Source: an uncultured Candidatus Saccharibacteria bacterium
Lineage (GTDB): Bacteria > Patescibacteriota > Minisyncoccia > Phycocordibacterales > WO2-35-19
Assembly: GCA_964489135.1 (NCBI GenBank)
Contig: CAZAXK010000004.1
Span: forward strand, 1 to 40,133
Length of the DNA stretch: 40,133 nucleotides
Direction: 5' to 3'
A program made the translations under genes and the position numbers. How positions within the stretch are numbered: position 1 is the stretch's first letter; each line of letters opens with the position of its first letter. Below the pieces are notes generated by a model. It did not search any database, was not told where the DNA came from, and saw only the letters and a program-made list of their open reading frames with translations. Positions 13,507 through 13,754 of this stretch are shown piece by piece.

Positions 13507-13611
13507 ATATACTCGTTTATATACTCGCCCCTTTTCTCATATTGCGCAGAGGCGCCCATTTCTGCTAGAATACCCTCGTTCTTTGGACAAAAGAATAATC
13601 ATTCCGCGGCA

Positions 13612-13646
13612 CCTGCCCGAATGACCGAATCATTCGGTCGGGCGGG
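13612..13646. repeat. REP-like palindrome (CCTGCCCGA...GGGCGGG type)
   Basis: cctgcccgaatgaccgaatcattcggtcgggcggg; same ends as the insert at 16773-16802. Confidence 0.7.
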
Positions 13647-13681
13647 GCTCAGTAACTGAGCACACCACGGAATAAAATCAT

Positions 13682-13754
13682 TCCGCGGTAGCTCAGTTGG
13701 TAGAGCGGCGAGCTGTTAACTCGTTGGTCGTAGGTTCGAATCCTACCCGCGGAG
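13682..13754 (+). tRNA. tRNA-Asn(GTT)
   Basis: Acceptor TCCGCGG/CCGCGGA, anticodon arm GCGAG-CTGTTAA-CTCGT, GTTCGAATC T-loop; CCA not encoded. Confidence 0.97.

Follow-up and report, generated by a model that had tools for sequence, protein, structure and literature searches.

Rickettsia palindromic elements insert in frame in protein genes, and the split tRNA halves of Nanoarchaeum have complementary flanks; there, and where leader and trailer of a pre-tRNA pair, the pairing joins the halves or extends the acceptor stem. Fragments of tRNA genes lie at attL and attR of integrated elements, where, as Williams reportedly described in 2002, the 3' part of the gene is repeated and flanks an element with an integrase. 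Template-switch (quasi-palindrome) mutations are reported to create and maintain RNA hairpins (PMC8794818), and inverted triplications (DUP-TRP/INV-DUP, ODIRA) are reported to arise from two template switches (PMC11790251).

Here we analyse a window of 40,133 nucleotides from an uncultured Candidatus Saccharibacteria bacterium, in which a tRNA-Asn gene is preceded by copies of its own 5' end. Like the attL/attR fragments, this leader holds a partial direct tRNA repeat beside an intact gene. Unlike them, it repeats the 5' part, has an inverted copy between the direct ones and spans an interval of 66 nt, and the ORFs of 8.7-20.2 kb of the window include no integrase (nor a transposase or reverse transcriptase), which is not the picture of an integration scar. 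As in Nanoarchaeum split tRNAs and in leader-trailer pairing, a flank is predicted to pair around the tRNA, but here the partner is a duplicate of the tRNA's own end.

The leader resembles the quasi-palindromes of PMC8794818 in having a reverse-complement copy beside its source, one-step 'compensatory' changes and very short loops. It differs from them in that the copied sequence is the 5' end of an essential tRNA and in that a three-part array with an extra palindrome has been kept in several lineages. The sense/inverted/sense topology recalls the triplications of PMC11790251, but those measure kilobases to megabases and amplify genes, whereas the leader array copies about 20 nt and forms an RNA-sized hairpin domain. 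A search of the literature outside subscription journals yielded no account of tRNA flanks of this kind in CPR bacteria, nor of the module behind tRNA genes discussed below.

The leader of the tRNA-Asn gene

The host genome (G000) comprises 680,405 bp in 41 contigs (45% G+C, 94.7% complete), the window being contig C4, and genomes of its relatives range from 0.4 to 1.4 Mb. ARAGORN found 31 tRNA genes in it, with a sole tRNA-Asn (GTT) at 13682-13756 on the + strand (ending at 13754 according to Rfam RF00005, 73.6 bits). An earlier note, made from the letters of the window, had claimed that the 5' end of this gene is duplicated upstream, once in sense and once in antisense, and this was borne out by repeat mapping, alignment and shuffled sequences.

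The direct repeat aatcattccgcgg occurs at 13597-13609 and 13676-13688, as the note had it, with 66 nt between the copies. The first copy (S1) corresponds to leader bases -6 to -1 and tRNA bases 1-7, and the second includes bases 1-7 of the tRNA itself, which both ARAGORN and Rfam start at 13682. S1 is followed by ca and then by P2, a 35-nt GC-rich palindrome (13612-13646) seen both as an inverted repeat and in the predicted fold, lying within the sense copy between tRNA positions 9 and 10. Directly 3' of this hairpin the sense copy resumes, also as claimed, with gctcagt (13647-13653, tRNA bases 10-16), and a single a separates it from the antisense part, actgagc-ac-accacggaat (13655-13673). 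The gctcagt, the a and the actgagc make up an inverted repeat and predicted hairpin, P3 (13647-13661). The remaining accacggaat (13664-13673) is an antisense copy of leader bases -3 to -1, the acceptor 5' strand and base 8, recognized by alignment and as an inverted repeat of both S1 and the real 5' end. As a whole, aactgagcacaccacggaat (13654-13673) runs antisense to tRNA bases 17 to 1 and a further three leader bases, the near match that the note had described, with 17 matches, 2 mismatches and 1 gap. An A-rich spacer and immediate leader, aaaatcat (13674-13681), lead into the tRNA, the final 6 nt being part of the second direct-repeat copy. The anatomy is X / rc(X) / X: the inverted copy (13654-13673) adjoins its template, and direct copies lie on both sides of it (13597-13609 and 13647-13653 before, 13676 onward after).

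This layout is not due to chance. When the 144 nt upstream were shuffled 5000 times with dinucleotides preserved, an exact direct match of at least 13 nt never appeared, and 25 shuffles reached or exceeded the observed inverted local score. Across the 29 host tRNAs with enough upstream sequence, the longest upstream direct match is 13 nt for tRNA-Asn and at most 11 nt for the others. A 5' antisense copy was found at tRNA-Asn alone among the tRNAs of the host, and searches of other Patescibacteria found the pattern again before tRNA-Asn.

Only one other host tRNA, tRNA-Gln(CTG) (contig C2, 2-73, - strand), has an upstream 5' copy with a GC hairpin. There, tattgcgggatcg (tRNA bases -4 to 10) lies about 63 nt upstream. 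Behind it come a CCCGCC... hairpin and sequence that continues the D arm in degenerate form; an antisense copy is absent.

Nor is the leader DNA an assembly artefact, because the stretch 13300-13707 is present without difference in contigs of two DNA runs of one study and the same layout is found in the interior of contigs from independent assemblies, one of them a closed 644-kb chromosome. A run search with the stretch also returned RNA-labelled runs, which match the tRNA body alone with foreign flanks and therefore come from other organisms. An Rfam 15 scan listed the tRNA alone, both at 12900-14200 (E up to 1) and in the whole window (gathering scores), and a consensus scan for promoters and terminators listed no terminator on the + strand.

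The promoter that the earlier note had read upstream of the repeats, TTGCGC-18-TAGAAT (13542-13571, +), was not listed by the consensus scan, its first hexamer matching at three of six positions. Its position upstream of the repeats stands, and TTGCnn-18-TAGAAT also precedes tRNA-Asn in three relatives (G002, G006 and G015), so that the promoter-like element is conserved. In these relatives the tRNA or its first copy begins 27-46 nt past the -10 box. S1 begins 31 nt past it, the usual distance of the tRNA-Asn start in relatives without the module. S1 therefore occupies the former 5' end of the gene, and about 79 nt were added behind it.

P2 had been described as REP-like. With REP/BIME sequences it shares a GC-rich palindrome, but these occur in many copies per genome and lie outside genes, whereas P2 measures 35-36 nt and BLAST and regex scans found no second close copy of it in the 680-kb genome. 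Within three mismatches, its pattern was found once, in one of 41 related genomes, which ruled out a high-copy repeat. Its closest relatives elsewhere (87-92% identity over 35-38 nt) include 36-nt palindromes lying in frame within gapA (L065, G001:C41:2390-2425) and within the RBFA-domain gene rbfA (L066, G008:C16; Pfam E = 3e-10), each adding 12 residues, PAR(P/M)(N/T)E..., as Rickettsia palindromic elements do in protein genes. Other relatives, in G006 and G022, occupy the same site of an upstream tRNA-Asn copy. The sequence comparisons thus make P2 a low-copy palindromic insertion family, and the REP label has to be dropped. Of the scar of template switching at a repeat insertion that the note had envisaged, the first half holds, since the sense/antisense/sense order fits two template switches or fold-back repair; a private scar of REP insertion does not, with P2 single-copy and the module known in ten versions.

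Further upstream, a beta-lactamase-family gene (11915-12934, -) stands head to head with the tRNA-Asn region. In G012 and G034 a homologue lies before tRNA-Asn and reads in its direction, so that an inversion breakpoint lies between the two genes. Between them, 12935-13540 is a non-coding stretch of about 600 nt with 50-60% G+C, against 45% for the genome, and it is predicted to be strongly structured (z of -6.0 on the + and -5.0 on the - strand). It has no match in Rfam or Pfam, and similar DNA is absent from 40 relatives and from the rest of the genome. RNase P RNA could be ruled out for this stretch, since that of the host lies on a contig other than the window's (C5:330-655; 74.6 bits, under the 100-bit cut-off of the family). 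A tmRNA was ruled out as well: neither ARAGORN nor RF00023 found one in this genome, 94.7% complete, where the matches are tRNA T-loops only. An intron remnant found no support in BLASTN and TBLASTX comparisons with the HNH-intron loci of relatives.

Distribution and folding of the leader module

In a pattern search of 401 genomes of the order, the upstream sense copy was found in seven (a reversed control pattern in none) and the sense-antisense type in two, the host and G076, which belongs to another family. A scan of one genome per species gave 24 loci, 19 in Patescibacteria-like records and five in other phyla; the latter (L046, L052, L057, L059, L061) share a 7-mer only, three of them are not tRNA genes, and they were set aside. 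A metagenome scan for the antisense-plus-tRNA junction added 18 loci, 11 of them of the sense-antisense type, and four chance matches (L073, L079, L080, L083) were left out of the count of versions. After merging identical sequences, ten distinct versions of the module precede tRNA-Asn: the window, L042 (= G022), L043, L044, L067 (= G076), L070, L071, L074, L072 and L085. Records with the same locus carry the labels Candidatus Paceibacterota, Nomurabacteria and Saccharibacteria. The layout is not private to the host and recurs in several Patescibacteria lineages.

All ten versions share one plan, that is, (c/t)AT-TCCGCGG-TA, a GC-rich P2 hairpin, GCTCAG(Y) with its complement, (A/G)TA, the complement of the acceptor 5' strand, an A-rich spacer of 4-8 nt and the tRNA. 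The AT directly before the closing stem is in 10/10 the same AT that precedes the real 5' end, and a hairpin is always found at the position of P2, with varying sequence and length. In G022, from another genus of the same family, the order is ATTCCGCGGTA, a related palindrome, GTTCAGC-aatt-GCTGAGC, ata, GCCGTGGAT, aaattt and the tRNA, while L071 holds an exact reverse complement of tRNA bases -2 to 16. The median pairwise identity is 0.73 for the module, 0.58 for the 60 nt upstream and 0.53 for shuffled sequence. Across loci, the T or C at tRNA position 16, where the copied 10-16 block ends, varies together with the module copies.

Sense copies without an antisense part also exist (L050, G014, G011, L033 and others). 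L050 has the same hairpin between positions 9 and 10; G014, G011 and L058 have another hairpin in the D loop, and L033 and others have none. G002, G015 and G012 have the same promoter without the module, and no closely related pair brackets the duplication event.

Folded alone, the module of the window takes a Y shape, in which S1 and the antisense form a closing stem, P1, that bears the hairpins P2 and P3 (-39.2 kcal/mol, z = -5.6). The alignment of the ten modules put the antisense parts in different columns, and pairing was judged from the fold of each sequence; every one of the ten, folded by itself, gives this Y (z from -4.6 to -8.4). Once the tRNA is added, the minimum free energy fold switches: the antisense binds the acceptor 5' strand and the D arm of the tRNA itself, and a complete cloverleaf is made in which S1 and the upstream GCTC serve as the acceptor and D-stem strands. 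By nearest-neighbour folding, which leaves out tertiary contacts and the order of synthesis, this misfold beats the Y plus cloverleaf by 10.6 kcal/mol in the window and is favoured in nine of the nine intron-less loci, by 4.7-13.1 kcal/mol. The ability of the leader to pair with the acceptor and D arms, as proposed in the earlier note, is therefore a regular prediction of these loci, and a template-switch origin combined with pairing potential is consistent with the data.

The differences among versions speak to which of the two pairings has been kept. L071 and L074 are one base apart within the module and have the same S1, TTCTGCGG; the antisense reads CCGCGGAA in L071, giving a U.G pair in P1, and CCGCAGAA in L074, giving U-A, where the other eight versions have C-G. 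The L074 base restores pairing of S1 with the antisense and spoils that of the antisense with the tRNA, and the predicted advantage of the misfold drops from 11.6 kcal/mol in L071 to 4.7 in L074. L042 and L044 also have G.U in P1, and L044 shows a double change from G-C to A-T in P2. The wobble pairs of L071, L042 and L044 fit the strand of the tRNA only, being A.C on the opposite strand. Because of the L071/L074 series, the evidence favours S1 with antisense as the pairing kept by evolution, which would keep the antisense off the tRNA.

As expected of a structured domain, the same fold and compensatory changes are seen, in a small sample of partly tRNA-derived sequence. About half of the module derives from the tRNA and may be homogenised with it, since in most loci the T or C at position 16 is common to the tRNA and its copies. 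In addition, correction of palindromes at the DNA level by template switching can mimic a compensatory event (PMC8794818).

A mirror-image module behind tRNA genes

The 3' side of the tRNA-Asn gene carries a mirror-image trailer (13757-13948, +), recognized by inverted repeats, predicted folding and a covariance model. It begins with a hairpin, H0 (13765-13794), followed by an antisense copy of the tRNA 3' end (13803-13820), hairpin A (13818-13841) and an antisense of the T arm, covering the 3' half of the T-stem and the T loop (13844-13855). Next come the hairpins of the conserved core, B and C, joined by tctac (consensus TGTAC), and then a sense copy of the 3' half of the T-stem, now decayed (..attccta, 13927-13933). 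The tRNA-Asn gene is thus flanked on either side by an X / rc(X) / X array into which hairpins are inserted.

The trailer is strongly structured by prediction (z-score -10.1). Seven trailer sequences align with a consensus fold in which 91.9% of cells are paired and 20 of 38 pairs are changed on both sides, a level of covariation reached by none of 500 shuffles and far above slid controls. An invariant U.G and several G.U pairs point to a trailer read on the + strand. The covariance model (R1, 137.8 bits at 13814-13948 of the window) detects the module in 31 of the 41 related genomes, at 1-21 copies each; the host has three, and a genome of 0.7 Mb has 21. The abundance and clear constraint of this 3' array make it likelier that the 5' array, too, is more than debris.

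Among 29 trailer loci examined (from L086-L115), a same-strand tRNA (Ser, Asn, Asp, Arg, Leu, Tyr or Ile) ends 19-57 nt before the match in 18. In five more such a tRNA lies 184-850 nt before, and six have none, two of these at a contig start. The general plan is X (the tRNA from the T loop to the 3' end), H0, which is often terminator-like, rc(X) split by hairpin A, the core, and a second X. The second X is identical to the real one over 17-22 nt in 10/17 loci; in the window its acceptor part has decayed. Where the copy and the real 3' end differ at a paired site, the partner fits the copy only in four cases, the real end only in none and both in one.

The core itself is variable. The trailer of G012 is 95% identical to that of the window up to 13858 and then has a different core. 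This second type follows tRNA-Asn in G012, is present in G029 and G033, and occurs in the window behind tRNA-Trp (30677-30748), at 30676-30524 on the - strand, with a GC-rich stretch, aaattttcagcagaaaatt and gtgac. Here it sits between an antisense T-arm piece and an exact 19-nt copy of the tRNA-Trp 3' end (30542-30524). In a contig of a related strain from run X1 (depth 8.4), 13860-13982 is replaced by 17 other letters, a possible filled/empty polymorphism.

The motif ccatccgtagctttagcgaaggagg (13933-13965) has 86-96% matches at one or two places each in G001, G006, G011, G016, G017 and G018. No Rfam family matches the trailer module (E up to 1). A hammerhead-like ribozyme was considered for the core and rejected, as its letters do not fit by eye and Rfam gave no match.

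Possible origin and role of the arrays

The reading that we tentatively favour, at somewhat less than an even chance, is that the leader is a self-neutralised sense-inverted-sense duplication, transcribed with the tRNA and removed by RNase P. Two template switches or fold-back repair would have duplicated the first 16 bases of tRNA-Asn and three leader bases, giving a self-folding module of about 73 nt (13601-13673) whose upstream, non-functional sense copy additionally holds the 35-nt palindrome. Breaks and allele replacement at tRNA-Asn may have given an opening for such a duplication. The start site, the order of folding and the RNase P cut, that is, every step at the RNA level, are what we infer. 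The module would be transcribed from the conserved promoter within the pre-tRNA, and during synthesis S1 would pair with the antisense before the real 5' end is made. The product would be a closed Y with P1 as closing stem and the hairpins P2 and P3; the antisense would be held off the real acceptor and D arm, the tRNA would fold normally, and RNase P would remove the whole leader. An unneutralised antisense would probably harm a single-copy tRNA, because the equilibrium fold pairs it with the real 5' end in 9/9 loci. Selection would mainly keep S1 paired to the antisense, and layout and pairing would persist on that account in several Patescibacteria lineages. On this explanation the leader module requires no positive function, though it may have one.

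Several features of the sequences count for it. They include the X / rc(X) / X anatomy with the upstream copy at the ancestral distance from a conserved promoter, the same Y in ten versions, the L071/L074 compensatory series, and an identity of the module above that of its flank. The trailer appears to follow the same logic, its antisense pairing with an extra downstream copy rather than with the tRNA. A module that binds the tRNA is thus less well supported than one that folds shut and leaves the tRNA free. Against it count the thermodynamic preference for the misfold, 10.6 kcal/mol, so that the model leans on co-transcriptional folding, and the P1 of the window itself, which has a C.A mismatch, the antisense matching the real 5' end at 9/10 positions and S1 at 8/10. 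Neutralisation alone also leaves unexplained why P2 is near-identical across lineages with unalignable flanks and why the 13-nt direct repeats have not led to deletion. Sense-only copies without an antisense count against it too, and the single compensatory event may stem from DNA-level palindrome correction by template switching (PMC8794818).

This last point belongs to an unlikely alternative, a neutral scar at the DNA level, in which a duplication and a palindrome were tolerated and no selection acts on RNA; the hairpins would have been kept by gene conversion with the tRNA together with mutational correction of palindromes. The loops are tiny or absent (GCTCAGT|ACTGAGC; CCTGCCTGCC|GGCAGGCAGG), as in DNA palindromes rather than in tuned RNA hairpins. 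The module is rare, the sense-antisense type being confined to 2/401 genomes of the order, and the antisense copies hold scattered mismatches. Gene conversion would explain why the copies follow the T or C of the tRNA D loop, and template switching is reported to create and maintain hairpins (PMC8794818). What speaks against a neutral scar is that the module is conserved next to 60 nt of upstream sequence with no more than background identity, that it persists despite direct repeats which should favour deletion, and that the G.U intermediates pair in the RNA of the + strand, on the strand of the tRNA.

Two further explanations seem to us quite improbable. In one of them, the leader is a maturation switch that uses both exclusive folds, with the antisense on S1 or on the real 5' end, and thereby tunes the passage from pre-tRNA-Asn to mature tRNA. 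Both folds are strongly predicted, the alternative one being a complete cloverleaf built with S1 and the upstream GCTC, its preference extends to 9/9 loci, and the architecture is conserved. Yet we see no candidate ligand, protein or signal, the only clear compensatory change makes the alternative fold weaker, a single essential tRNA would be an odd target for an off-switch, and no Rfam family matches at E up to 1.

The other, which we give an equally poor chance, is a miniature mobile or recombination-linked element that uses tRNA ends and is kin to the trailer, its copies made at insertion or spread by co-conversion of tRNA-Asn in intron homing. In several relatives the anticodon loop of tRNA-Asn is interrupted by a group-I-like intron that carries an HNH endonuclease gene (G022 and G006), and split BLAST matches to tRNA-Asn were found in G005, G040 and G024. 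The interruption falls after CTGT of the anticodon loop in L019 (G022), L064 (G006), L033, L040, L047, L051 and L060, and some of these introns hold an HNH gene. The order in G006 is promoter, S1, palindrome, decayed D arm, HNH gene and an intact tRNA-Asn with a 216-nt intron. The tRNA-Asn of the host shares 94-97% identity with its counterparts in other genera (G012, G015, G017) and 81% with that of G002, a species of its own genus, so that one genus holds two allele types.

A mobile element would also suit the patchy occurrence across families of a near-identical P2, the P2 family members inside ORFs elsewhere and the related strain without 13860-13982 of the trailer core. Against it, the ORFs of 8.7-20.2 kb encode none of the enzymes of such elements that were looked for (integrase, transposase, reverse transcriptase), terminal inverted repeats are absent, there is one copy per genome, and known transposition mechanisms do not copy their target both directly and inverted.

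It is highly improbable that RNase P also cuts before S1 and frees a stable acceptor-stem mimic of about 75 nt as a decoy or cofactor, for instance for enzymes that read U1-A72 of tRNA-Asn and tRNA-Gln: P1 equals the tRNA acceptor stem with the same AT before both in 10/10 versions, the module is tRNA-sized and tRNA-Gln is the only other host tRNA with a 5' copy and GC hairpin, but the module is rare, the Asn/Gln coincidence is post hoc and, by textbook rules, RNase P substrates without a T arm, such as this module, are poor.

It is conceivable, if doubtful, that Patescibacteria flank their tRNA genes with a class of X / rc(X) / X modules that mimic tRNA ends, rare as leaders and abundant as trailers. 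These would be either functional RNA domains, acting in end maturation, quality control or termination in bacteria with a reduced RNase set, or a new miniature mobile element that targets tRNA genes and copies its target both ways.

The leader of tRNA-Asn offers a concrete, sequence-defined case in which an accident of replication or repair beside an essential gene would make an RNA able to trap the product of that gene, and in which the same accident would provide the antidote, an extra sense copy. Starting from it, the analysis came upon a second module, conserved, structured and multi-copy, that follows tRNA genes in an uncultivated phylum. Should the leader or the trailer act in tRNA maturation, this would bear on how tRNAs are processed in bacteria with very small genomes.
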